A DNA stretch of 64,000 nucleotides from Escherichia coli (GTDB taxonomy: Bacteria; Pseudomonadota; Gammaproteobacteria; Enterobacterales; Enterobacteriaceae), in the NCBI RefSeq assembly GCF_044324785.1, contig NZ_CP172127.1. One strand, 5' to 3'. Below the pieces are notes generated by a model. The model was not told the origin of the DNA and searched no databases. It saw only the letters and a list, made by a program, of their open reading frames with translations. Made by a program: the position numbers and the translations under genes. Below are positions 1-60,705 of the stretch, one piece after another; position 1 is the stretch's first letter; the number at the start of each line of letters is the position of its first letter.

Positions 1-78
1 CCGAAGAATGCTCCGGGATGTTTATCCACGCCCGGTCGTGCTACCTTTTATGTCCTCACAACAAAAAAGGATATTTTC

Positions 79-297
79 ATGTCAGAGATAGCCGAACTTA
101 AAGAAGAATTAGCTAAAGTTAGAGCTGAATTACATACCCACAAGGCATTGCTCTTAACCATTCTTCGTGATCTTCCTCCTCAAAAAGATAAATTTCTCTT
201 GAGAATTGGAGCGTCCGTTAACGATCTGAACCGCCCAGATATTCAGGAGTTAGGCACACTCATTCAATTTTTGCGGTTGCTAAATAACCGCAAATAG
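79..297 (+). CDS. hypothetical small protein (72 aa)
   Basis: ORF only; weak RBS; convergent and overlapping with 260..634; no recognisable motif. Confidence 0.3.
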   Translation: MSEIAELKEELAKVRAELHTHKALLLTILRDLPPQKDKFLLRIGASVNDLNRPDIQELGTLIQFLRLLNNRK

Positions 298-634
298 CAT
301 CAACATTAAGCCGGGTGCCGTCATGTTTATTGGCGGCATCAGTAGCTATTTGTAATATTTTTCTGACGTCATCAATACTTGTTCCCCGGGTTGTTTCGCA
401 CAGACTTTTGTCAATTGCGCAGAAAACTTCAAAAACTCCCGTAGCCAATTTTTCCCGTTCATCTGCTTTCAGAGTGATGACCGGAGAATATAGCGTAGTA
501 AAGGCTTCTCTGATTTCCTGCGCCATAGCTACTGGTGATTTTGTTTCGCAAAGCTGGGTGCTGAACTGCATCCGGTCACTCAGTAGATGAGCGGCGATCA
601 CCTGAATTTGTTGCGGTAAAGATTTAAATTCCAT
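260..634 (-). CDS. hypothetical early-leftward phage protein (about 125 aa from internal ATG)
   Basis: AGGAG RBS precedes internal Met (MEFKSLPQQ...); sits leftward of the repressor as in lambdoid PL operons. Confidence 0.5.
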   Translation of the reverse strand: MEFKSLPQQIQVIAAHLLSDRMQFSTQLCETKSPVAMAQEIREAFTTLYSPVITLKADEREKLATGVFEVFCAIDKSLCETTRGTSIDDVRKILQIATDAANKHDGTRLNVDAICGYLATAKIE

Positions 635-741
635 CGTTTGGTACTCCTGACACACTGGTCTGGGTTGCCCTTATCGCCGGGTAGCGGAACGTGTTTCTGA
701 ACAACTGCCGCTGGGTAAGCGTTGTTGATGAAAGCGACTTT

Positions 742-790
742 ACAATTTGTATTTGTAATGGTCAATGTATTTTTAAAAAATAATTTGTAG
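742..790. promoter_or_regulatory. putative left operator cluster (repeated TTGTAA / ATTTGTA half-sites)
   Basis: acaatttgtatttgtaat and aatttgtag repeats left of the repressor gene, same half-site as the right operator region. Confidence 0.35.
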
Positions 791-884: not shown

Positions 885-1313
885 CTATTTTGTCTGGTTT
901 TTGGCTTCAAGTAGTTCTTTTAGCAGTAGATCGAAGTGCTCTCTTTTTTCTTTTAGCTCATTGATTAGTTTATTTTTTTCGCTCTCAGGCAGTCCTCTGA
1001 ATAGTTGCAGTAGAGCCTGTTCTTGTGGGGTTAGTTCTTGATTGTAATTACCGGGGTGTAGCGTGGATTCATCCAAATATTCTCCTTCATTCATGAAGAA
1101 AAAATGAACAGGGTATCCGGTCACTTTTGCTAGCTTGTCTAATTTATCTTTTCTTGGCGTTACCCCATTACACCATGCCTGAACTGATTGAGCTGTAACC
1201 CCAATATGGCGAGCTAACTCAGATTGAGACCAGCCTAAGTCTTTTAGAATCCGTTGTAGTCGGCTAGCAAAAGCCATGTTTTTCGTTTTTGTGTTCATAC
1301 CGTAAGGATACAA
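885..1313 (-). CDS. phage repressor, XRE-family HTH (CI-like, short form without S24 peptidase domain)
   Basis: HTH segment SQSELARHIGVTAQSVQAWCNG; divergent from a Cro-like gene; true start probably internal Met (1298 or 1277), possibly leaderless. Confidence 0.7.
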   Translation of the reverse strand: MYPYGMNTKTKNMAFASRLQRILKDLGWSQSELARHIGVTAQSVQAWCNGVTPRKDKLDKLAKVTGYPVHFFFMNEGEYLDESTLHPGNYNQELTPQEQALLQLFRGLPESEKNKLINELKEKREHFDLLLKELLEAKNQTK

Positions 1314-1396: not shown

Positions 1397-1627
1397 ATGG
1401 ATAAACAACTGCAAGACAAAATTCTTTCCGTAATGAGTCAATCAGAGTTAGGTCGGCGATTAGGGAAAAAACCACAAACTGTGAGCCTCTGGTTCAAAGG
1501 ACGGGTTCCCGGTGAAGAGGTTTTGCGCACATCTGAAGCTCTTGAATGGCGCGTGACCCCTCATGATCTTAGACCGGATCTTTACCCAAACCCAGATGAC
1601 AGCTTGCCTAAAACGGAAGCAGCTTAA
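1397..1627 (+). CDS. Cro/YdaS-like HTH regulator
   Basis: AGGAG RBS then ATG at 1397; MDKQLQDKILSVMSQSELGRRLGKKPQTVSLWFKG resembles YdaS/Cro family; first rightward gene. Confidence 0.65.
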   Translation: MDKQLQDKILSVMSQSELGRRLGKKPQTVSLWFKGRVPGEEVLRTSEALEWRVTPHDLRPDLYPNPDDSLPKTEAA

Positions 1628-1685: not shown

Positions 1686-2162
1686 ATGGAAAACCCAGAG
1701 GAATTACAAAAAGAGATTTTGACCTGGGCGGCAAGGGCAGGGCAGGAACTCGTCACGATTGAAATCTGCCGGGCCTGGTTCAGTCAGGGACGCAATGATG
1801 AGTTGAGACTACATGAATTTGAGGACGCGGACGGCAACGTGGACTGGAGAGCCATCAACAACAATCGGCAGAAAATCTTTCGCTGGTTACGTGGCGAGAC
1901 AACGGCGGCGCGCCGAAAAACTCAGGTGCTGGCCAGTGTGATGAAAGCCGTGCTACCCGCAGAACGGCGTGCGCGTCTGGAGTCGCCGGGCGATCCTGTT
2001 TTGCTGGCAACGCTGGCGGCAAAAGAAGGGGTGGAAGCGATTAACGCTGTACATCTCCACTTCGCGCCAGAGATAACTATTCAGGAAATTGACGAAGCAA
2101 TAGCGGCGCTGGTAGCGACGCGAGGGGCAGTGATAAGCACTGCGCAAGGCCATCATGCATGA
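1686..2162 (+). CDS. YdaT-family (CII-like) regulator
   Basis: follows cro-like gene as in Rac ydaS-ydaT; family assignment by recollection of the sequence pattern. Confidence 0.5.
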   Translation: MENPEELQKEILTWAARAGQELVTIEICRAWFSQGRNDELRLHEFEDADGNVDWRAINNNRQKIFRWLRGETTAARRKTQVLASVMKAVLPAERRARLESPGDPVLLATLAAKEGVEAINAVHLHFAPEITIQEIDEAIAALVATRGAVISTAQGHHA

Positions 2163-2163
2163 G

Positions 2164-2204
2164 CGCCTGACCAGCGTTTAACTTATACCGAGGAAAGACC
2201 GATG
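2164..2204 (+). repeat. conserved ~40-bp intergenic motif, copy 1 (cgcctgaccagcgt..accgaggaaagacc.atg)
   Basis: near-identical to 4599..4636; each copy lies between a stop codon and the next ATG. Confidence 0.55.
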
Positions 2205-2426
2205 TTAAGACATATTGACCGCATTACCTGGCGTAACGGCTGGCACCTGAATGGACGCCCGGCACATGTTGCAGAGATCCGCCCCATATTCGATGGCCGC
2301 GTCGCAGCTGCACGTTCTGTATGGGAAAAGTACGAAGAAGAAAAAGCGAAACTGCGTGAGCAAAATCTCTCTGGCGCTGCCTATGAGGCTGGCTGTCGCG
2401 TTCTCTCAGAGGCTTTGGGCATATGA
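2202..2426 (+). CDS. hypothetical protein (74 aa)
   Basis: ORF preceded by GAGGAAAG RBS inside the conserved motif. Confidence 0.4.
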   Translation: MLRHIDRITWRNGWHLNGRPAHVAEIRPIFDGRVAAARSVWEKYEEEKAKLREQNLSGAAYEAGCRVLSEALGI

Positions 2427-3190
2427 ACATCCTCCCGTTACTTGATAGACCCATAGCCTTCCAGAGAAGTTTTATCCGTCTTGAAATTGGCGTGACTGCC
2501 GCATTGTTTCTGTCGCAGTTGACGTACTGGACAAACAGAACAACTGACGACGGCTGGGTGTATAAAACCCAGGATGAGTGGGAAGAGGAAACAGGGCTTT
2601 CACGATACGAGCAGGAGGGCGCCCGCAAAAAACTACGTGGTCTCGGCGTCTTGCTGGAACGTAAACAGGGCTTGCCTGCCAGGCTGTACTACAAAATCGA
2701 TAATGATGTGTTGTGCCAGCTACTTACGTCCGCATACAAGGATGCGGAAAAACCACATACAGGTGAGGGGAAAACCACCAGGCCTGTACGTGGAAAACCA
2801 ACAAACATTCTTACAGAGAATACAACAGAGATTACTACAGAGATTATTACTGATGGTGAATCGGCTGACGCCGACACCCAACAACCTGCCGACCAGAGAA
2901 TAAATTATCAGGTGATACTCGATACCTATCACGAGATTTTGCCAGAGATGCCACCAGTGAAAATCCTCACTGACGGCAGAAAAAAACACCTTCGCACTTT
3001 CTGGAAAAAATTCAATTTCAATGAGTCCCGTTGGCGGGCCTATCTGGAATTTATCGGTGGCAATTGTCGCTGGATGCTGGAGGACAGGCCAAATGGCAGG
3101 GGAGGATTCTGGCGGCGTAAAAATCTTGATTATCTGATTACCGAACGCTGCTACGTTTCGGTTAAGGAAGAACGCGCAAATGATAAATAA
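2423..3190 (+). CDS. phage replication initiation / replisome organizer protein
   Basis: position immediately upstream of and overlapping DnaB-like helicase; N-terminal region resembles replication organizer proteins. Confidence 0.5.
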   Translation: MNILPLLDRPIAFQRSFIRLEIGVTAALFLSQLTYWTNRTTDDGWVYKTQDEWEEETGLSRYEQEGARKKLRGLGVLLERKQGLPARLYYKIDNDVLCQLLTSAYKDAEKPHTGEGKTTRPVRGKPTNILTENTTEITTEIITDGESADADTQQPADQRINYQVILDTYHEILPEMPPVKILTDGRKKHLRTFWKKFNFNESRWRAYLEFIGGNCRWMLEDRPNGRGGFWRRKNLDYLITERCYVSVKEERANDK

Positions 3191-4595
3191 CGCGATTGCA
3201 CTGTACAGCGTTGACGCAGAACAGGCTGTTCTGGGCTGTCTGATGCTGAATACCGACCACGACAGAACCAATGCGGTATTTGCGTTACTGAAACCGGAAA
3301 CGTTTTATATCAATGCGCATCAGGTTATCTACCGGGAGATCAAAGGATTATTTCAAGCTGATAAACCAACTGACCTGATAACACTGACCGAACTGATGGA
3401 ATCGAAGGGGCTGTATGAGCGCGTGGGGGGATTCGCATACCTGGCTGAAATGAGTAAGGCGGCGATACCGGCCTCAATGGTCAACTACGCGAAAATTGTA
3501 CGTGAAAAAGCCATTCTTCGTTACGCCGTGGAAAAGTTGAATTCTTGTCTGGAGATTATGACCCAGCCTGCAGATATGACTGCTACTGACAGGATCAGCA
3601 CCGTTCAGCAAGTGATTGGACAGGTAGCTGAACATGCCCGTACCGGGCATAAGGGCGGTTTGCGTCCGGCAAGTGAAGTCGTCGATGACTGGATAGATGA
3701 CCTTGATCGCCGTTTCAATGATCCAGCACATGCAGCCGGACTAACGCTCGGAATCGAAAGCCTTGATCGCTTAATGGCACCAAAGCAGGCGTTAAGAGGC
3801 TCATTGGTCGTTATTGGTGCCCGGCCAAAAATGGGCAAGACAGCCGCGTTTAATAAAATTGCGGTGCATTTTGCTCTGAATCATCGTTTGCCGACGCTGG
3901 TATTTAGCCTGGAAATGACTGACAGAAGTCTCATTGAACGCATGGTTGCGCAGGAAGCAAAGGTCAATTCGGAGATTTTTTATCTTGGCCCTAACGATGA
4001 ATCTGAATTGAGTCTCGCAATAGCAAAGGCGGGGGAGATTGCCGAATCCAACATGATGATTGACAGCACGGCAGGCGTAACCCTTGCGCATATTGTCGCT
4101 GAATGCCGAAAGGTTAAGCGGATGCATGGCTCGGTTGGCCTGGTGGCAATTGACTATTTGACGCTGATGAAAACCGAAGCGGCAGAACGTCGGGATATTG
4201 CGTATGGCGATATCACAACCGGTTTGAAGAACCTGGCAAAAGAGCTGGATTGTGTTGTGGTCCTGCTGACGCAACTCAACCGAAAACTTGAAGAACGAGC
4301 AGATAAGCGGCCTAACCCGAGCGACAGTAAAGATACCGGGCAGATCGAACAAGATTGCGATGTCTGGATTGGCCTCTATCGTGATGCTGTTTATAACGAA
4401 AATGCCGACCCAAATCTCATGGAAATGTTGCTACGTCTGAACCGCGAAGGACCATCGGGAACAGCCTACGCCCTGATGAAAAATGGCTCAGTTATTGATA
4501 TCAGCGATGAGGAGGTTTATCGCCGTACCAACTACCGCTCAGAAAAAAATAAACGTTATTCCCGTAGCGATAATTCTCGCACAAATGAATTTTAA
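3180..4595 (+). CDS. replicative DNA helicase, DnaB family
   Basis: Walker A GARPKMGKTAA, DnaB-like N-terminal domain, 471 aa. Confidence 0.85.
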   Translation: MINNAIALYSVDAEQAVLGCLMLNTDHDRTNAVFALLKPETFYINAHQVIYREIKGLFQADKPTDLITLTELMESKGLYERVGGFAYLAEMSKAAIPASMVNYAKIVREKAILRYAVEKLNSCLEIMTQPADMTATDRISTVQQVIGQVAEHARTGHKGGLRPASEVVDDWIDDLDRRFNDPAHAAGLTLGIESLDRLMAPKQALRGSLVVIGARPKMGKTAAFNKIAVHFALNHRLPTLVFSLEMTDRSLIERMVAQEAKVNSEIFYLGPNDESELSLAIAKAGEIAESNMMIDSTAGVTLAHIVAECRKVKRMHGSVGLVAIDYLTLMKTEAAERRDIAYGDITTGLKNLAKELDCVVVLLTQLNRKLEERADKRPNPSDSKDTGQIEQDCDVWIGLYRDAVYNENADPNLMEMLLRLNREGPSGTAYALMKNGSVIDISDEEVYRRTNYRSEKNKRYSRSDNSRTNEF

Positions 4596-4598
4596 CCA

Positions 4599-4636
4599 CG
4601 CCTGACCAGCGTGAAATAACCGAGGAAAGACCAATG
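4599..4636 (+). repeat. conserved ~40-bp intergenic motif, copy 2
   Basis: matches 2164..2204 with a shorter internal spacer. Confidence 0.55.
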
Positions 4637-5044
4637 ACCACCACTCCAGGCAAATTAGAGTACCCGTCGGACAAAGGACACATAGACGACGGTAAAAACT
4701 ATCTCGACGTCATTTTGTGGAATATGAACGTCGGGCCACGTGCGCGCACTCGCGCGGTTTTTGTGCCAAGACCTAAAGCAGGCAATTTTTCAACCCCTGC
4801 TAAGCCTGCCCGTCAGGCATCCGTAGCCGCAGCGCCAGCAGTGAAACGTAAGGGCAAAACGCACACCGGGATCGCGATTCGCAGAAATGGTGAGCGGCAA
4901 GTAAAACTCCACGAAACAGCGACAACCTGGTGTGCTTCACCGCATGAAACTTACGACAAGATAACCGGGCAGCGCATTGGTGCGCCTGGTCGCTGTCGCC
5001 TGCTGTTGAGTTCCATCACTCCGATAGCAAAGAAAGGGGCGTGA
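4634..5044 (+). CDS. hypothetical protein (136 aa), basic C-terminal half
   Basis: ORF with RBS in conserved motif. Confidence 0.45.
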   Translation: MTTTPGKLEYPSDKGHIDDGKNYLDVILWNMNVGPRARTRAVFVPRPKAGNFSTPAKPARQASVAAAPAVKRKGKTHTGIAIRRNGERQVKLHETATTWCASPHETYDKITGQRIGAPGRCRLLLSSITPIAKKGA

Positions 5045-5045
5045 T

Positions 5046-5282
5046 ATGGCCGGGCAATCAGATTACCTGCCGCCCGGCTTACCACACAACCGCGCCAAAT
5101 GGCCCCAGGAATACCAGCTTAAAGAGCACTACGACATGCGAGCGGCGACGCTGATCCGCCAACTCTTTGAGAAACGTATTCCGAGGGGAAGCGTGATTGA
5201 GCAAATCGGAATGACGCCGGATACGTACCGGGAATTTTTCAGAGAGCGTCTGAACTACTGGAGAGGGGTGATGGAGCAATGA
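5046..5282 (+). CDS. hypothetical protein (78 aa)
   Basis: tightly packed with neighbours in same orientation. Confidence 0.4.
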   Translation: MAGQSDYLPPGLPHNRAKWPQEYQLKEHYDMRAATLIRQLFEKRIPRGSVIEQIGMTPDTYREFFRERLNYWRGVMEQ

Positions 5283-5590
5283 AATACAAACGGTGGGTGC
5301 GTGCGGAAGTCGTAATCATCAAACAATGTGCGGGCAGCATGACAGTTGAACGTATAGGGCAGCTTATTGGAAGAACCGGTGCAGCGGTACGCACAAAAGC
5401 GCGCGAGCTGAAAATCTGTATGTATCTGCGGGGTAATTATCACCAGTCAGCAAAATACTGCCAGGAGGATATCGAGCTGGCAAGGGAATTACATCAGTCG
5501 GGTATTAATCGCCAGGATATCGCAGAAAAACTCGAAATGCCGATCGGAGCGGTGAATCAGTTTGTTTATTTTGAGCGGAGGATTTCATGA
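5279..5590 (+). CDS. hypothetical protein, possible HTH DNA-binding (103 aa)
   Basis: overlapping start/stop with neighbours; two HTH-like segments. Confidence 0.4.
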   Translation: MKYKRWVRAEVVIIKQCAGSMTVERIGQLIGRTGAAVRTKARELKICMYLRGNYHQSAKYCQEDIELARELHQSGINRQDIAEKLEMPIGAVNQFVYFERRIS

Positions 5591-5811
5591 AAGAACTTTT
5601 TCTGGCATTTGTGCCCCGGTTTATTAATGACCAGATCGCACTGACTGATAATGGTGAACAATATGAAATTGCCTGCAGCATGGTGGATGTGAATCCGGGC
5701 GAACGGTATGACGCGATGTGTGACCTGAAAATATTCACCTGGCTGGGTTGGGCCATTCCGTGTGGAGAACCAACAAATATTCGCCCGTTTGAGGGCAGGG
5801 AGGCTGTATGA
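5587..5811 (+). CDS. hypothetical protein (74 aa)
   Basis: ORF; stop overlaps a further 38-aa Cys-containing small ORF starting at about 5808. Confidence 0.4.
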   Translation: MKELFLAFVPRFINDQIALTDNGEQYEIACSMVDVNPGERYDAMCDLKIFTWLGWAIPCGEPTNIRPFEGREAV

Positions 5812-5998
5812 GTGAATTGAAAATACGTCGCAAGGCAATAGCACGCGTTAAAAATCCATTACCAGTGCCCGCCGAATGCCATTTTTGTGGTGGGAATGTA
5901 CGGATTGGTACGTATGTATGGTGATTGCGGAGTGACGTAAAACGAATCGTTGTGGGTGTAATATCGTCAATATCATTGGTTTCCCGGAGGGAAAGGAC

Positions 5999-6220
5999 AT
6001 GTTTGGCGATAAACTGGAGTTACCACGGAACGGGCGGATAGTGCTCTATATTTCAGATTACAAAGTAACCAGGGCTGAGGTGTTGGAACCGGAAAAACAT
6101 CTGGTCACGTTACCGGACATTATTGAGTTGTATAAGCGGGTCGGATATGTGGACTTGCATCGCGATGATGTTCCCGTTGAGTGTATGGAATGTGAACACC
6201 GGAGGTTTGAAGTTGATTGA
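5999..6220 (+). CDS. hypothetical protein (73 aa)
   Basis: ORF with GGAGG RBS. Confidence 0.4.
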   Translation: MFGDKLELPRNGRIVLYISDYKVTRAEVLEPEKHLVTLPDIIELYKRVGYVDLHRDDVPVECMECEHRRFEVD

Positions 6221-6312
6221 ATTGACTTAGAAAAAGCCCGGGGCTATAGTTTCCGCGCAGCCGCAAAATCGGTTGCCGGGATTGGCGTCCCGGATATCTA
6301 AGTGACGCATAG

Positions 6313-6331
6313 CCGCGTTAGCGGTTTTTTT
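6313..6331 (+). terminator. putative intrinsic terminator
   Basis: ccgcgttagcgg hairpin followed by a T7 run. Confidence 0.45.
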
Positions 6332-6444
6332 ATGTGTTAGGCACGGCCACATTCGCATTATGGTGGGCTGTGTGGGGGCTTCTGCGGAAGCGCCGGGTTC
6401 ACTTAGCCGGTTACGCCAACCCTGCACAGTTCACCACCAGATGA

Positions 6445-7137
6445 TTGGCGTCGCTGGTGGTGATGAAAAAAACACTAAGTGAGGCCACTGCGATGACAAT
6501 CCAAATATCTGCGGAATCCCTTTCTCCGCTACATCATAACCAACTTCCCGTCATCACTACTGAATTGCTTGCCAGTTTGTATGGCACGGAAGTAAATGGT
6601 ATCCAGCAAAACTTCAAGCGCAACATCGCCAGATTTGTCGTAGGAAAGCATTTTTTTAAGCTGGAAGGTAATGAATTACGCGACTTCAAAAACAGACTGA
6701 CAGATAGTCAGTCAGTTGCTAAACATACCCGATCCCTCATTCTCTGGACAGAACGCGGCGCAGCTCGCCATGCCAAAATGCTGGAAACAGAACAGGCCTG
6801 GGAAGTTTTCGAAAAGCTGGAAGATTGTTATTTTAGCCAGCGTCCAGAGAGGCGGAGTACAACTACCGATGACCGTACTCCCTTACGTGATGCCGTTAAT
6901 ATGCTGGTCGGTAAGAAAGGCATGATGTATCCCGATGCCTACACCATGATTCATCAACGCTTCGCCGTCTCTCACATAGAACAACTGTCACAGACGCAAA
7001 TGTTAGAGGCGATTGAATACATCCACTGCCTGCTACTCGATGAAAATCAACCAACCATTCCAGATCACCACTATCAAAAATGGAAAAGTGACCAGAATGC
7101 GCCATGTTGCCAAAGGCGAACATCTGATGACCTTTGA
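6445..7137 (+). CDS. antirepressor-like protein with ORF6N-type N-terminal domain
   Basis: ELLASLYGTEVNGIQQNFKRNIARFVVGKHFFKLEGNELRDF pattern; C-terminal 30 aa look unnatural, possible frameshift into 7013..7270. Confidence 0.5.
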   Translation: MASLVVMKKTLSEATAMTIQISAESLSPLHHNQLPVITTELLASLYGTEVNGIQQNFKRNIARFVVGKHFFKLEGNELRDFKNRLTDSQSVAKHTRSLILWTERGAARHAKMLETEQAWEVFEKLEDCYFSQRPERRSTTTDDRTPLRDAVNMLVGKKGMMYPDAYTMIHQRFAVSHIEQLSQTQMLEAIEYIHCLLLDENQPTIPDHHYQKWKSDQNAPCCQRRTSDDL

Positions 7138-7270
7138 CGCTTTCAAAGAGATCGCTGAGCGGGCAGGGTATCTGGTGATCCACAGCGACAATCTGCGAAG
7201 TATGACACTGGATAAATTGATGGTAATGGGGAAAAAGTCTGCTGTATCCGTTGCTGATTCAGCATTTTGA
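7013..7270 (+). CDS. possible C-terminal continuation of antirepressor in +1 frame, or separate small gene
   Basis: protein-like ORF overlapping the 3' end of 6445..7137 in another frame. Confidence 0.3.
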   Translation: MNTSTACYSMKINQPFQITTIKNGKVTRMRHVAKGEHLMTFDAFKEIAERAGYLVIHSDNLRSMTLDKLMVMGKKSAVSVADSAF

Positions 7271-7300
7271 CAGGTTGAATGTTTGGCGCGGTTATACTCT

Positions 7301-7377
7301 ATTTGCGCTTAAAAAGGTATTTAGTCACAACCAGCACGAGGCCGAATACTCTGTCAAAGTACCGCCCATGTAAAACT
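7301..7377. repeat. direct repeat copy A (~77 bp), degenerate copy of the 3' end of gene 10899..11504
   Basis: about 92 percent identical to 10901..10978 with a 1-nt indel. Confidence 0.8.
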
Positions 7378-7447
7378 GTAACGTATGTACTTGATGACTA
7401 AGCTGGCACCAGGTTAACACCAGGCGCCAGCTTGAAGGAAACTTCAG

Positions 7448-8371
7448 TTATTGGTTTCTGAGGAAAGCGATTCTTGAAAGGGTCATTTGCGTCTGGCAGT
7501 CGACCATTTTCTTGACTTCAGCATCTGTTCCCTGCATTGAAACTTTACCGCACATAGCATCCTTAGTTTTGATCCACTGACGCTGAGAAGGCAGCAAATC
7601 TTTTTTCTTCGCCGGGGTTAACTTGCTCCAGACGGTACTCAAATCAGAGTCGGCATTCGCAAATGCCATTCGGGACTGATCAAGGCTGTCAGCTTTTTGT
7701 GGCTGAAGTTGTGCCTGTCTCTCTATTTGCTTCTCCGCCTCATACTTAGCCTGTTCCTGCGCCCTGAGTTGCACCTGTTGTTCCGCTTCAATTTGGCTCT
7801 GTTGGGCATCCTTAGCCTGCTGGATTTTCTGCTGCTCAACGATCGGGTTGATAATAGAAAGTGATGTCAGTAAAGCGGCGCCCACTGATATCGGATTATC
7901 AGAAGAGGTTTTTACAAAAACGTTTTTCTGATCGTCGGTCGCCTGCACGGTGTAGGTGATACGTTTGGAAAAGGCGTTTGCGTTGTTCTCCAAAAACAGG
8001 CTTTCCATTTGCTTGTCGAGATTACGATTAAAATTCTTTCTGTAATCATCAGAAAGCTGGACGTATTCGTTCGCAGGTAGAGTCATCGTCACGGTCCCTT
8101 CACAAGTTTTCATTGTGCTGCCCGTGTCACTTGATGTTGTGGAGATTTCAGAGATGGCTAGTTTGATCTTGTCCAATGTGCTTCGTTTGGTCTGATTAGT
8201 GACATCAGGGTATTTATCGACCTGTTCAGAGAGTCCTTCATAAGCAGATTTTTTTAATAAATCCATAAGCGCTGACTGGGTTATTTCCGAAGAACAACCG
8301 ATCACATCTTTTTTGTTATCACAGCCTGTAAGGGCAATGGCGAGTAAGAGTACTGAGTATTTTAATCTCAT
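7448..8371 (-). CDS. lipoprotein with C-terminal DUF1311 (LprI-like) domain
   Basis: lipobox LTGC after signal peptide; Gln-rich coiled coil; C-terminal QRQWIKTKDAMCG...DCQTQMTLSRIAFL pattern. Confidence 0.55.
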   Translation of the reverse strand: MRLKYSVLLLAIALTGCDNKKDVIGCSSEITQSALMDLLKKSAYEGLSEQVDKYPDVTNQTKRSTLDKIKLAISEISTTSSDTGSTMKTCEGTVTMTLPANEYVQLSDDYRKNFNRNLDKQMESLFLENNANAFSKRITYTVQATDDQKNVFVKTSSDNPISVGAALLTSLSIINPIVEQQKIQQAKDAQQSQIEAEQQVQLRAQEQAKYEAEKQIERQAQLQPQKADSLDQSRMAFANADSDLSTVWSKLTPAKKKDLLPSQRQWIKTKDAMCGKVSMQGTDAEVKKMVDCQTQMTLSRIAFLRNQ

Positions 8372-10898: not shown

Positions 10899-11504
10899 TT
10901 ACTTGCGTTTAAAAAGGTATTTTGTCACGACCAGCACGAGGCCGAATACCTCTGTCAAAGTACCGCCCATGTACAACTGGAGCGTTAAGTCTTTAAATAC
11001 AAGCCATTCAGCACCAGTGGCAAAAAATACACCATTCATTATCAAAAGCTGGCAAGCAAGGATAATAAGGAACCATTTGCCATAGCGTTTTTTTAGATCG
11101 ATTTCAGCTTCAAAATCTTTGTTGTTGAGTTGTTTGCGCTCATGCTCAGTATCAAGTGAATTCACCTGTTTCACAGATGTGAACTCGGTCAAGATTTTAC
11201 TCTCAGTACGGGTGACTTGTTGAGAGGGGGTAGGAATTGGAATTCTTTTGATTGACGCAGCTACAGCCATTTTGCGAGCTTCGGCAGCTCTTTTTCTGGC
11301 TATTCCGTGAATACGGGCAGACGGTTTTTTTGGAGCATGCGAAACCTTTGTCTGAGGTGAAGTTTCGTCAGGAGACTGAACCGGAGTTTCATCCTCCTCC
11401 GGCTCAACCTCTTCTGCTAACTGACGGTGTAGGTTGAGGGAATCCTTCAGTCGGCGTGCAACTTCCTGTTTGAAACGGCTGTTAAAATCGTCATCCGATG
11501 GCAT
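10899..11504 (-). CDS. membrane-anchored protein (charged N-terminal region, two C-terminal TM helices), partner of ImmA-like peptidase
   Basis: start 9 nt after peptidase stop, RBS inside peptidase 3' end; hydrophobic segments WFLIILACQLLIMNGVFFATGA and LVLVVTKYLF. Confidence 0.55.
   Translation of the reverse strand: MPSDDDFNSRFKQEVARRLKDSLNLHRQLAEEVEPEEDETPVQSPDETSPQTKVSHAPKKPSARIHGIARKRAAEARKMAVAASIKRIPIPTPSQQVTRTESKILTEFTSVKQVNSLDTEHERKQLNNKDFEAEIDLKKRYGKWFLIILACQLLIMNGVFFATGAEWLVFKDLTLQLYMGGTLTEVFGLVLVVTKYLFKRK
10901..10978. repeat. direct repeat copy B (~78 bp), coding for the C-terminus of 10899..11504
   Basis: pairs with 7301..7377. Confidence 0.8.
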
Positions 11505-18577: not shown

Positions 18578-18730
18578 ATATCCGTATTTCGCTGCGCACC
18601 GCATGCGCATATCAACCACCGAACCAAACCCTTTGGAATGAGCCGTTGAGGATGTCAGTTAGTGCTGGCGAGCCTCGGTGGGCTGACTTCCTATGCGGCA
18701 ACGGTTCATCTCAAAGAGTAGGTACACGCT

Positions 18731-19228
18731 ATGAAATCATTAACCCTCTTCAATCAACCAATCCGCGTCGGGGATGATGGCATGATCTGCCTCACCGACA
18801 TGTGGAAAGCCAGCGGCAAAAGTGACGCTGAATCGCCGTACCACTATCTGCGAAACAAGCAGACCAAAGAGTTCCTTGTCGAGCTGGAGAAAAACCACGA
18901 ATCTGTGGTTTTCACTGCCCGCGGCGTACACGGCGGAACCTATGGCGGGAAGTTTGTTGCTTACGATTATGCGGCTTGGTTAAACCCAGGGTTCAAGTAT
19001 GCAGCCTATAAAGTACTCGATGACTACTTCACCGGAGAGCTTCGGCATCGTAATAGCTTAAGTGCGCAGCTCAACATGAAGTGTTATGAGTTTGACCAGA
19101 AGAAAGACATGGCGAGCTTCTGTGGGCAAGGACTCGCGGCATGGCGTTATACAAAGCCTGTGCTGATCGCTGAGATGAACACCTTGGCAAACCAACTGCA
19201 GATTACGCTCCCTGGACTTCCTGGATGA
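18731..19228 (+). CDS. KilA-N domain protein
   Basis: N-terminal FNQPIRVGDDGMICLTDMWKASGKSDAESPYHYLRNKQTKEFL. Confidence 0.55.
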   Translation: MKSLTLFNQPIRVGDDGMICLTDMWKASGKSDAESPYHYLRNKQTKEFLVELEKNHESVVFTARGVHGGTYGGKFVAYDYAAWLNPGFKYAAYKVLDDYFTGELRHRNSLSAQLNMKCYEFDQKKDMASFCGQGLAAWRYTKPVLIAEMNTLANQLQITLPGLPG

Positions 19229-19467
19229 GTAATCGCGTCATCGAATGCGCCTCCAGAGCGGGGCGTGACTTCTCAGAGTTCATGAAAGGCGAGAAGGGTA
19301 TGGAGGACGCGCTGTCCTCGGTGAATCAGTTTGGCGAGCAGATTCGACTCAACGGCTGCGTCAATCATCACTTTGTCAGTTACATGATGCGTAACGCGAT
19401 CATGCAGGCATTCATGGACATGGCAAGCACTGAGAAAAAAGAAGAGCGCCGACGTAAACGAGCGTAA
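19225..19467 (+). CDS. hypothetical protein (80 aa)
   Basis: start overlaps stop of KilA-N gene. Confidence 0.4.
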   Translation: MSNRVIECASRAGRDFSEFMKGEKGMEDALSSVNQFGEQIRLNGCVNHHFVSYMMRNAIMQAFMDMASTEKKEERRRKRA

Positions 19468-19617
19468 GCAAAAGCTGAGTAGTCATTCCAAAGCTCATCC
19501 CCGGGCGGGCTTGATAATGGATAGTCATCACAGATTTAAAATGTGGCAATGAAGTCTCTTTAATAAGCCAATTCTTAGCATTATTCTGACCTCTCCAATT
19601 GAAAAGGAGGTTGAGTA

Positions 19618-34287: not shown

Positions 34288-34866
34288 ATGCAAAATTTAA
34301 AATCATTTAAGCTTGTAAAACCTAAAACGAAATTACTTAAACTTAGCGAGTCTGACGGACAAAATGTTTTGTATCTTCAGTCCGAAGACGGCCTGGATTG
34401 GTATGAATGCCAGTCACTGTATCGCGATGACACAGTAAAAATAATGTACGACAAAGAAAACATTATTCGATCAGTTGTTGATCGCCCGGTCCCGGAGCGA
34501 GGAAATACCTATTCTGTGAGCATGTTTTTCCCGATTGATATGAGTGTTACGGAGGTTGAGTTGAGCACATATCCTTCTGAGCTAACTCTCGACGGATCGT
34601 GGAAATTTGTTGACGGTGATGTATATCAAGATGAGCTCATTGTAAATGAGCGTATTTACAAAGAAAACTCCAAAAAAATTAATGAATTAGTCCGAGAGGC
34701 TCAGTCAGCAATTCTAAATTTACAAACGGCCATAGAGATTGATATTTCATCAGATGGTGATGAGGAAAAATTAATAGAATGGCGACGGTACCTGTGCGCG
34801 CTGAATAAAATAACAGCCACGGATCTGAGTCAGTCCCCACTTAACACGCCTTTACGACCAGCATAA
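34288..34866 (+). CDS. tail fiber assembly chaperone
   Basis: immediately downstream of fiber gene. Confidence 0.5.
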   Translation: MQNLKSFKLVKPKTKLLKLSESDGQNVLYLQSEDGLDWYECQSLYRDDTVKIMYDKENIIRSVVDRPVPERGNTYSVSMFFPIDMSVTEVELSTYPSELTLDGSWKFVDGDVYQDELIVNERIYKENSKKINELVREAQSAILNLQTAIEIDISSDGDEEKLIEWRRYLCALNKITATDLSQSPLNTPLRPA

Positions 34867-51881: not shown

Positions 51882-52447
51882 TATGTATTCCCTTGTGATT
51901 ATAATCTTCATGAATATATCAATAAGTGCCGTTATCCAAAAAAAAGCACATTTGGATACTATTCTATGAAGTTCATTTTATTTTAAGGATTACATGTAAC
52001 AAATGTATTTAAAAGATTTCAAAATGTTTCTAATCTATTTAATATAATTCAGAATTATGAATTCTAGATATAAATATTCATGATAATTATGAATATATAT
52101 CAATATGTTATGAGTTGATTGGAAAGATAGGAAGTATCAATGATTGCGGCGCTAAACGGCTGATGTGATCACGCGCACATTAATGAAGGCATAAAAAAAA
52201 GCCGGCATCATGCCGGCCCAAAAAATATAAACAAGACGATAAAAGGCTAATAACGGGGTTATCATGACACAGAAATCAAAAAAGGTATAATTGAATTCGC
52301 TGCTAATATATTGTTTAGGTGAATTAATAAAACCATTACCATAGATAATAATAAATCTTCATTGCTGTTTTTCCGGTAATTATTGCCGTTGCGCAAAAAT
52401 TATCTATTTGTTCAAAAAATGATTGAGTCTTGACTGGCTCATCCAAT

Positions 52448-60618: not shown

Positions 60619-60705
60619 AACACATCAGATTTCCTGGTGTAACGAATTTTTTAAGTGCTTCTTGCTTAAGCAAGTTTCATCCCGACCCCCTCAGGGTCGG
60701 GATTT
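60619..60705 (+). ncRNA. dsrA: small regulatory RNA DsrA
   Basis: aacacatcagatttcctggtgtaacgaattttttaagtgcttcttgcttaagcaagtttcatcccgaccccctcagggtcgggattt matches DsrA including its terminator hairpin. Confidence 0.9.

Follow-up and report, generated by a model that had tools for sequence, protein, structure and literature searches.

The window analysed here, a 64,000-nucleotide stretch of Escherichia coli DNA (contig NZ_CP172127.1), includes the early rightward operon of a lambdoid-type prophage, and within this operon a composite element of about 40 nucleotides (nt) occurs twice, once after a YdaT-family, CII-like gene (copy A) and once after a DnaB-family helicase gene (copy B), each time immediately ahead of the next start codon (Table 1). 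The initial annotation had described two shared blocks upstream of two unrelated genes and had proposed either a shared translational or regulatory element or a recombination linker. The blocks are as it described them: read directly from the window sequence, the 14-mer CGCCTGACCAGCGT lies at 2164-2177 and 4599-4612, and the 14-mer ACCGAGGAAAGACC, collinear with the first in both copies, at 2187-2200 and 4619-4632, with a spacer of 9 nt in copy A and 6 nt in copy B and an ATG (at 2202 and 4634) one base after ACCGAGGAAAGACC. Its account of the surroundings, with a YdaT-like and a DnaB-like stop just upstream and unrelated proteins downstream, is likewise borne out by the open reading frames (ORFs) and by Pfam and PHROG assignments: the upstream stops are the TGA of the YdaT-family gene (2160-2162) and the TAA of the helicase gene (4593-4595), and the downstream proteins, of 74 amino acids (aa; phrog_2465) and 136 aa (phrog_5148), are unrelated to each other (comparison E=5.3). 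Single repeats of 14 nt are not rare (51 families in 64 kb), while two collinear 14-mers within 40 nt at two gene starts are, by our own estimate, far beyond chance (about 1e-6 expected). Neither 14-mer recurs in the window with up to two mismatches, save for a two-mismatch chance match at 34496, and a covariance model of the element run over all 64 kb recovers only copies B (65.1 bits) and A (50.5 bits), the next match scoring 10.7 bits. We take as independent proof that the element is real its conservation in other phages, set out below.

The first half of each copy folds as a small RNA hairpin, a feature absent from the initial annotation, which had suggested structure prediction as a check. 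It consists of a stem of 4-5 base pairs (bp) and a 7-nt loop, CUGACCA. Hairpin A starts right at the TGA of the YdaT-family gene and its stem can be extended to 7 bp using G-U pairs; its predicted fold has an energy of -6.5 kcal/mol (z=-2.6), and covariation of its stem is seen in families A1 and A4. Hairpin B begins 2 nt past the helicase stop and folds at -6.6 kcal/mol (z=-5.6), with an equally good fold in none of 200 shuffles. In the predicted folds both hairpins keep the Shine-Dalgarno (SD) sequence free, without pairing to it. Neither hairpin is followed by a U-tract or appears in the output of the terminator scan, no promoter-like site lies at 2160-2204 or 4597-4636, and a comparison with Rfam 15 returned no family at the elements at the gathering threshold in the window and none at E<=1 in a sister prophage (L069, see below).

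Table 1. Positions of the two element copies and of the early genes and sites around them in the window.
Feature	Positions	Strand	Details
Leftward early pL-type promoter-like site	737..765	-	TTGACC-17-TAAAGT; same site in L069
cI-like repressor	885-1313	-	
YdaS/Cro-like gene	1397-1627		
YdaT-family / CII-like gene	1686..2162	+	Pfam PF06254 E=2e-15; phrog_163, CII-like activator; upstream of copy A
Hairpin A	2160..2180	+	Core stem 2162-2166/2174-2178 (AGCGC/GCGUU), loop CUGACCA 2167-2173
Box A	2190..2204	+	GAGGAAAGACC 2190-2200 including SD GAGG, then G, then orf74 ATG 2202-2204
Block headed by A	2202..4595	+	orf74 2202-2426 (phrog_2465), O-like initiator 2423-3190, DnaB-family helicase 3180-4595
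Hairpin B	4597..4613	+	Stem CACGC/GCGUG (4597-4601/4609-4613), loop CUGACCA 4602-4608
Box B	4622..4636	+	GAGGAAAGACC 4622-4632, then A, then orf136 ATG 4634-4636
Block headed by B	4634..5811	+	orf136 4634-5044 (phrog_5148), theta-like 5046-5282, orf103 5279-5590, orf74b 5587-5811

The motif search of the genome and of related phages that the initial annotation had also suggested yields only the two copies in the window and many in related phages. Among viral contigs, 68 loci matched the exact pattern, and relaxed scans of those loci gave 165 instances in four site classes: site A, between the CII-like gene and an orf74 homologue; site B, which follows the helicase stop and precedes differing genes (MTTTPGKLEY, MTTNLNYPKP, MTDLLYAKTT, MTQLINHTS); and two sites in the leftward operon, before an exonuclease-family gene of about 730 aa and before a small 'MDIKK' gene. 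The recurrence of the unit at other junctions, including those of the leftward operon, had not been part of the initial annotation. A single phage may carry the unit at as many as four junctions, spread over its two early operons, and all copies, confined to early regions, are co-oriented with transcription and with the gene they precede on both arms. Cultured carriers are the Stenotrophomonas phages BUCT708/709 and the Pectobacterium phage ZF40, and the element is found as well in Escherichia whittamii, Citrobacter, Enterobacter, Shimwellia and three Serratia species (one genome per species scanned). As these first loci had been ascertained through the motif itself, a second, motif-independent sample was drawn by collecting upstream regions through orf74 protein homology alone. 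The hairpin is present in 40 of the 42 distinct orf74 upstream regions so obtained, even where orf74 identity is down to 51-60%, and the loop in those 40 regions is CUGACCA (AUGACCA once), on stems that are lineage-specific (cgc/gcg, cgg/ccg, cgt/acg). Viral contigs positive for orf74 number roughly 190, and there are lineages in which the hairpin was lost, such as ZF40 at site A and L161.

Comparison of copies shows a stem that changes while it continues to pair and a loop that hardly changes. The bases flanking the CGC...GCG core pair, for example as AGCGC/GCGUU at site A, CACGC/GCGUG at site B of the window, and CGCGC/GCGCG, UGCGC/GCGCA and GGCGC/GCGCC elsewhere. Among 47 distinct copies ascertained by motif, 93% of cells pair, against 84% in shuffles (0 of 500 as high), the outer pair being GC, CG, AU, UA or UG, and in registers slid along the sequence pairing drops to 10-54%. 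In 55 copies ascertained by protein homology, where the inner three pairs had to pair at collection, a filter that leaves changes of pair identity unaffected, double changes occur at all five pairs (47 cells against 14 expected), covariation reaches 0.49 against 0.19 (0 of 500), and slid registers pair at 20-50%; their stems include cgg/ccg, cgu/acg, agc/gcu, ggc/gcc and cac/gug, with the U, A, C and C of the loop invariant. At site A the hairpin is noncoding in the window, whereas in BUCT708-type phages it falls inside the final six codons of the gene ahead of it; its conservation is therefore not explained by protein coding. A stem that covaries around an unchanging loop fits the expectation for a structure that something reads through its loop.

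The second half of the unit is a box, GAGGAAAGACC, which across loci ends 1-5 nt upstream of an ATG or GTG. Only its GAGG can pair with the 3' end of 16S rRNA, so that the other seven bases are conserved for a different reason. The box precedes 3-7 early genes in each related genome and is commoner than the hairpin: ZF40 has eight co-oriented boxes before early genes of both arms, with the hairpin at only two of them. ZF40-like phages carry a variant, GAGGCAAGACC, and the variants are sorted by lineage, since ZF40-like loci contain GGCAAGACC four to seven times and GGAAAGACC never, whereas E. coli, Klebsiella-type and Serratia loci contain GGAAAGACC three to six times and GGCAAGACC never. Such concerted variants point to homogenisation between copies or to putative co-evolution with whatever reads the box. 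The string GACCA is common to the loops, to the stretch between box and start (AAAGACCAAUG) and to many start contexts (AUGACCA), and the start context of orf136, AUGACCA, repeats the loop core. Hairpin and start codon keep their distance, the stem ending 20-28 nt before the start codon in 78% of 172 distinct hairpin-box-start units, with a spacer of 6-24 nt between hairpin and box. A position 20-28 nt upstream corresponds to the 5' edge of the region covered by the 30S subunit.

The placement of the units follows the organisation of the operon. In the A-headed block all internal gene junctions overlap, as expected of translationally coupled genes, and in the B-headed block they overlap or are 1 nt apart. 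The two hairpin-box units of the window sit at junctions with gene gaps of about 40 nt, while most other junctions of the early operon overlap or are 1-2 nt apart, and hence each element heads a translationally coupled block. An exception among the junctions is the 58-nt cro-ydaT gap, which has no element. This gap (1628-1685; ggtgag..aaatctgatta..atcaattt..gcgacaggagacgc) is conserved with ZF40 7194-7248, although the proteins are elsewhere about 50% identical, and may be another regulatory site.

Related phages also carry parts of the unit away from any start codon. Because the window extends only a short way beyond the immunity region on the left, and has diverged there from ST131 strains, we examined L069, the ST131 version of the prophage, for the left arm. 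Downstream of its pL-type promoter L069 has an untranslated leader of 700-800 nt with an intrinsic terminator, followed by a tandem array of three hairpins, all with the CUGACCA loop on stems that differ (ACGC/GCGU, UGAGC/GCUCA, GGGC/GCCC); BUCT708 and other loci have leaders of the same construction. At 5-9 nt after each leader hairpin stands a second hairpin that has the box core in its loop (CCGG-GAAAGA-CCGG, CCCG-GAAAGA-CGGG, GCGG-GAAAGA-CCGC and others), and 14.8% of all occurrences of GAAAGA lie in stems of 4 bp or more, compared with 1-5% for hexamers used as controls. A third type of hairpin (GTAGGG-GACCAA-CCCTAC, CACAAG-UGACCAAA-CUUGUG) directly precedes a box. To judge from their make-up, the start-less, 'closed' copies of the leaders, which have the same two-part architecture, look more like decoys or loading sites than like ribosome sites. 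The small ORFs of the leaders are unconserved between phages and are therefore probably not genes.

Several further observations concern this leftward region. The left arm of the window (1-700) and the corresponding part of L069 (18700-19400) diverge about 55 nt past the pL-type promoter, and where L069 has its hairpin-rich leader the window has an ORF of 131 aa (260-655, minus strand); the ORF replaces the leader from that point on, so that a mosaic junction falls within the leader. The leftward leader RNA, long and conserved, spans 18600-19470 (-) of L069, is present also in two other loci (L070 and L003) and occupies 4890-6260 (-) of ZF40. It contains an intrinsic terminator and a tRNA-like T-arm (GGTTCGAYTCCGGGCGC) kept between the E. 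coli prophage and ZF40, together with arrays of three small hairpin types, and its sole match in Rfam is a weak, RprA-like one below threshold. The region may encode an undescribed structured RNA.

Tentatively, and at somewhat less than an even chance, we favour the reading that early gene blocks share the element as a post-transcriptional operator combined with a ribosome site, and that recombination at it is a by-product. Each copy would be a bipartite, RNA-level control unit heading a block of translationally coupled early genes, its first part being the small hairpin, whose end some 20-25 nt upstream of the start coincides with the 5' edge of the ribosome footprint, and its second part the box GAGGAAAGACC, a conserved ribosome site placed 1-5 nt ahead of the start codon. 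The fixed loop would dock a trans-acting factor, whether a phage protein or some conserved component of the host, and this factor would set or switch the initiation of translation, possibly with the fate of the mRNA as well, for several early blocks together, making of them a post-transcriptional regulon; the start-less leader arrays of sister phages would then be loading or titration sites for the same factor. As the same 11-40 nt recur at several junctions, they would also offer short homologies for the gain, loss and exchange of genes, which we regard as the by-product. Directly observed are the hairpin and its fixed loop, the box, the positions, strand bias and conservation of both, the concerted changes of the box and the coincidence with mosaic junctions; the binding of a factor and an effect on translation are inferred. 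The 'shared translational or regulatory element' of the initial annotation is thus upheld in kind, on the strength of a covarying hairpin, a start-associated SD box, start-linked placement and presence at 40 of 42 loci.

As for what might read the loop, it stays the same from one phage lineage and host genus to the next, in contrast to the drifting box, and the partner may therefore be a host component, for which the ribosome, RNA polymerase or an RNA-binding protein would be candidates. More speculative ideas suggested by the sequence are that the loop is an anticodon-loop mimic (5-bp stem, 7-nt loop, U at position 2, NAC), that it mimics a start context (NUGACCA compared with AUGACCA), that the leader acts as a CsrA-type sponge of GGA motifs, and that there is pairing with 16S rRNA. 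A wider version of the proposal, in which the CUGACCA hairpins and GAGGAAAGACC boxes would be operators of a previously unrecognised post-transcriptional regulon in widespread temperate phages of Enterobacterales, among them a prophage found in hundreds of ST131 genomes, a single loop-docking factor co-ordinating the replication, recombination and accessory blocks on both early operons and the leader arrays serving as a decoy or loading platform that times the switch, seems to us possible, if on the doubtful side.

Several results weigh against a factor-read operator. Examination of the orf74 model, of arginine-rich candidates and of complementary RNA found no binding partner for the loop. The gene orf74 co-occurs perfectly with the element, its homologues among cultured phages being found only where the element is present, and its AlphaFold model, a short beta element and two helices, is confident (predicted local distance difference test score 90.6), yet it has no informative structural neighbour in the PDB (best E=1.2); Pfam and PHROGs give no function for orf74, for orf136 or for the leftward phrog_2479 protein. 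The sole real arginine-rich candidate, gp22 of ZF40, is missing from the window phage, and neither the window nor L069 contains a complementary RNA. A hairpin-box spacer that ranges so widely is loose for a rigid two-part protein site, and the eight boxes and two hairpins of ZF40 indicate that the halves can work apart. Lastly, no trans factor is required if the box is simply a strong ribosome site and the hairpin an insulator, a view that leaves the fixed loop unexplained.

This last point leads to the rival that survives best, and that we nonetheless consider rather unlikely: a purely cis-acting translation module, in which the box is a strong, context-independent ribosome site and the hairpin insulates it from the sequence upstream or protects a processed mRNA end. 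The unpaired SD in the predicted folds, the location of the hairpin just outside the 30S footprint and the occurrence of hairpin-box units at gapped junctions where most others overlap all agree with such a module, and insulation would suit modules that are shuffled. What it does not explain is the fixed loop, which neither stability nor insulation needs across lineages with differing stems, nor the start-less tandem arrays of the leaders, nor the conservation and concerted change of the non-SD part of the box.

A second rival, improbable in our estimate, would make the hairpin the boxB of a nut-like site, bound by an N-like protein or acting on RNA polymerase, for processive antitermination. 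The purine-rich GAAAGA loop of the second leader hairpin is reminiscent of lambda boxB, the early operons are long, and the leftward leaders of sister phages have an intrinsic terminator with hairpin arrays around it. Like the nut sites of phi21, the elements are small, GC-rich hairpins in early transcripts, and their loop, CU(G/A)ACCA, resembles the phi21 boxB hexaloop CUAACC (PMC12550061), which is contained in the loop variant CUAACCA, although the main loop CUGACCA has 7 nt rather than 6. Unlike nut sites, the element has no boxA, no shared N-like protein and several start-tied copies per operon. In particular, no boxA (CGCUCUUUA-like, up to two mismatches) adjoins the window hairpins or occurs in the leader cluster of L069, no terminator adjoins the window elements, and no small arginine-rich protein is common to all element-bearing phages. 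The first conserved leftward gene (phrog_2479) encodes an acidic protein, which counts against an N-like role, and a scan for arginine-rich proteins yielded mostly out-of-frame artefacts, with gp22 of ZF40 as a genuine hit. This protein of 115 aa (L071, 14594-14941, +) has an N-terminal arginine-rich segment, NTKERAAARKRAQRKRQR, and a Cys-rich C-terminus, without a Pfam match; its homologues occur in many element-bearing loci and are lacking in the window phage, L069 and BUCT708. Moreover, a nut site would be promoter-proximal, single in its operon and placed without regard to start codons, whereas the window copies stand after the CII-like gene and the helicase gene, at distances of about 0.85 and 3.3 kb from the region of the rightward promoter, and there are up to two to four copies per operon, each locked to a start codon 20-28 nt downstream, a link that a nut site does not need.

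The recombination linker of the initial annotation is also improbable as the reason for the element's existence, although exchange does take place there. Of the unique blastn homology endpoints in about 70 loci, 9.4% fall inside elements (within 10 nt on either side), against 1.45% expected from their length, and endpoints per junction number 1.22 at elements against 0.39 at 877 other gene starts (p=3e-7, about 3-fold), counts that are inflated by conserved islands between diverged genes. A cassette of 313 nt (MDIKK gene, hairpin and box) is in L007 and missing in L011, and GAGGAAAGACC stands on both sides of it, which implies a crossover inside the box. Different genes follow identical elements at site B, and the concerted box variants fit gene conversion between copies. 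If, however, the repeats were DNA-level linkers or mobile regulatory cassettes that exist to promote module exchange, as has been proposed for the 'linkers' of lambdoid phages and shown for the PeSL cassettes of T4-type phages (see below), one would not expect strict co-orientation with transcription or a fixed distance to the start codon, and a mere patch of homology would not keep its pairing by compensatory change while freezing seven unpaired bases. Nor is there a recombinant between the two window copies, A x B, among the 451 E. coli genomes that hold both parts (5,426 genomes searched).

An antisense target, with the loop and box paired by a small RNA in the manner of P1 C4 or P4 CI immunity, is very improbable and, for the sequences in hand, largely refuted: the prophage does encode a C4-family RNA with its a1/b1 targets, and C4-type RNAs act on ribosome sites, yet the complements of loop and box in the window and L069 are only the elements' own opposite strands, ZF40 has no copy complementary to its variant box, the duplex of C4 with copy B is no better than with shuffles (-29.9 against -30.4 kcal/mol), and the Rfam c4-a1b1 model matches 6244-6296, not the elements.

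The prophage that carries the element is common: 415 of the 5,426 complete genomes of E. coli have it at 98.3% identity, and many of these are O25b:H4-ST131. The window shows other features of interest. A P1-type immI-like module at 6244-6441 (+), with Rfam c4-a1b1 targets/isrK at 6244-6331 and the C4 antisense RNA at 6356-6441, lies directly upstream of an ORF6N/antirepressor-like gene (ORF 6445-7137) and gives the prophage a second, RNA-based layer of immunity. Further on, an 86-nt direct repeat (7300-7384 and 10900-10985, 92% identity) flanks a block of 3.6 kb that includes a gene for an LprI-family lipoprotein (7448-8371, minus strand) and looks like a repeat-bounded cargo ('moron') insertion. 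In the O-like gene, the repeat-rich stretch at 2809-2846 (tacagagaatacaacagagattactacagagattattac), probably the iterons of the origin, matches the O genes of many Stx/lambdoid phages at 93-100% while the remainder of the gene is unmatched. An exact 34-nt match links the 3' end of the helicase gene (4492-4525) with a 'CRISPR'-annotated feature of E. coli NZ_CM137008.1, which may be a spacer acquired against such phages. Two small RNAs of the host, RseX (52194-52283, -) and DsrA (60619-60705, +), are present in the window, so that the right-hand 12 kb or so is chromosomal and the prophage ends before about 52 kb.

To our knowledge, early control in phages of the lambdoid type is usually told in terms of repressors, promoters and N/Q antitermination, and a frozen-loop hairpin before several early blocks, in phages without the hallmarks of N and nut, points to an undescribed, additional layer of control. 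Translational operators of phage proteins, with conserved sequences at ribosome sites, are known from the RegA regulon of T4. The closest mechanistic precedent for a translational operator is, by analogy, offered by Aca2 of ZF40, which binds hairpins in 5' untranslated regions and represses translation, with motifs also between genes in operons (bioRxiv 10.64898/2026.07.27.740549). The conserved hairpins at ribosome sites and the same motif before several genes, including within operons, are alike in both, whereas the Aca2 sites have different sequences, belong to the acr locus and have a known binder. For recombination, the closest analogue is the promoter-early stem-loop (PeSL) of T4-type phages, a short, repeated stem-loop cassette between small early genes at which indels and replacements occur (Arbiol et al. 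2010, PMC2839356). PeSLs consist of a sigma-70 promoter and a terminator hairpin (PMC2839356), while the element described here is a hairpin with a ribosome site, without promoter or U-tract. A literature search on the element's sequence strings returned only unrelated primers and siRNAs.

In its anatomy the element comes closest to the start-associated sequences and extended start-associated sequences (SAS/ESAS) of Cluster K mycobacteriophages, whose function is still without explanation (PMC3203893, PMC12699233). There, too, an asymmetric box with an SD core, conserved beyond what can pair with rRNA, stands a few bases upstream of mostly ATG starts, in one orientation, ahead of non-structural genes only and of unrelated gene families, with lineage-specific differences in consensus and, at about half of the sites, an inverted repeat upstream. 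The two differ in consensus (GGGATAGGAGCCC compared with GAGGAAAGACC), in host phylum and in phage group. They differ also in their upstream halves: ESAS are imperfect inverted repeats of 17 bp with a variable spacer, whose variation does not support RNA pairing and for which the authors favoured DNA binding (2011, PMC3203893), whereas here the stem is a covarying RNA stem of 4-5 bp with a fixed 7-nt loop, and leader arrays are present in addition. We hence regard the element of the E. coli prophage as an analogue of SAS/ESAS and not as a member. It is a real, widespread and well-defined RNA element, and a concrete case of a functional regulatory repeat doubling as a crossover point in mosaic phage evolution. 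It offers a defined, mutable target of 40 nt in a prophage common in clinical E. coli, and a Gram-negative, genetically tractable counterpart to SAS/ESAS.

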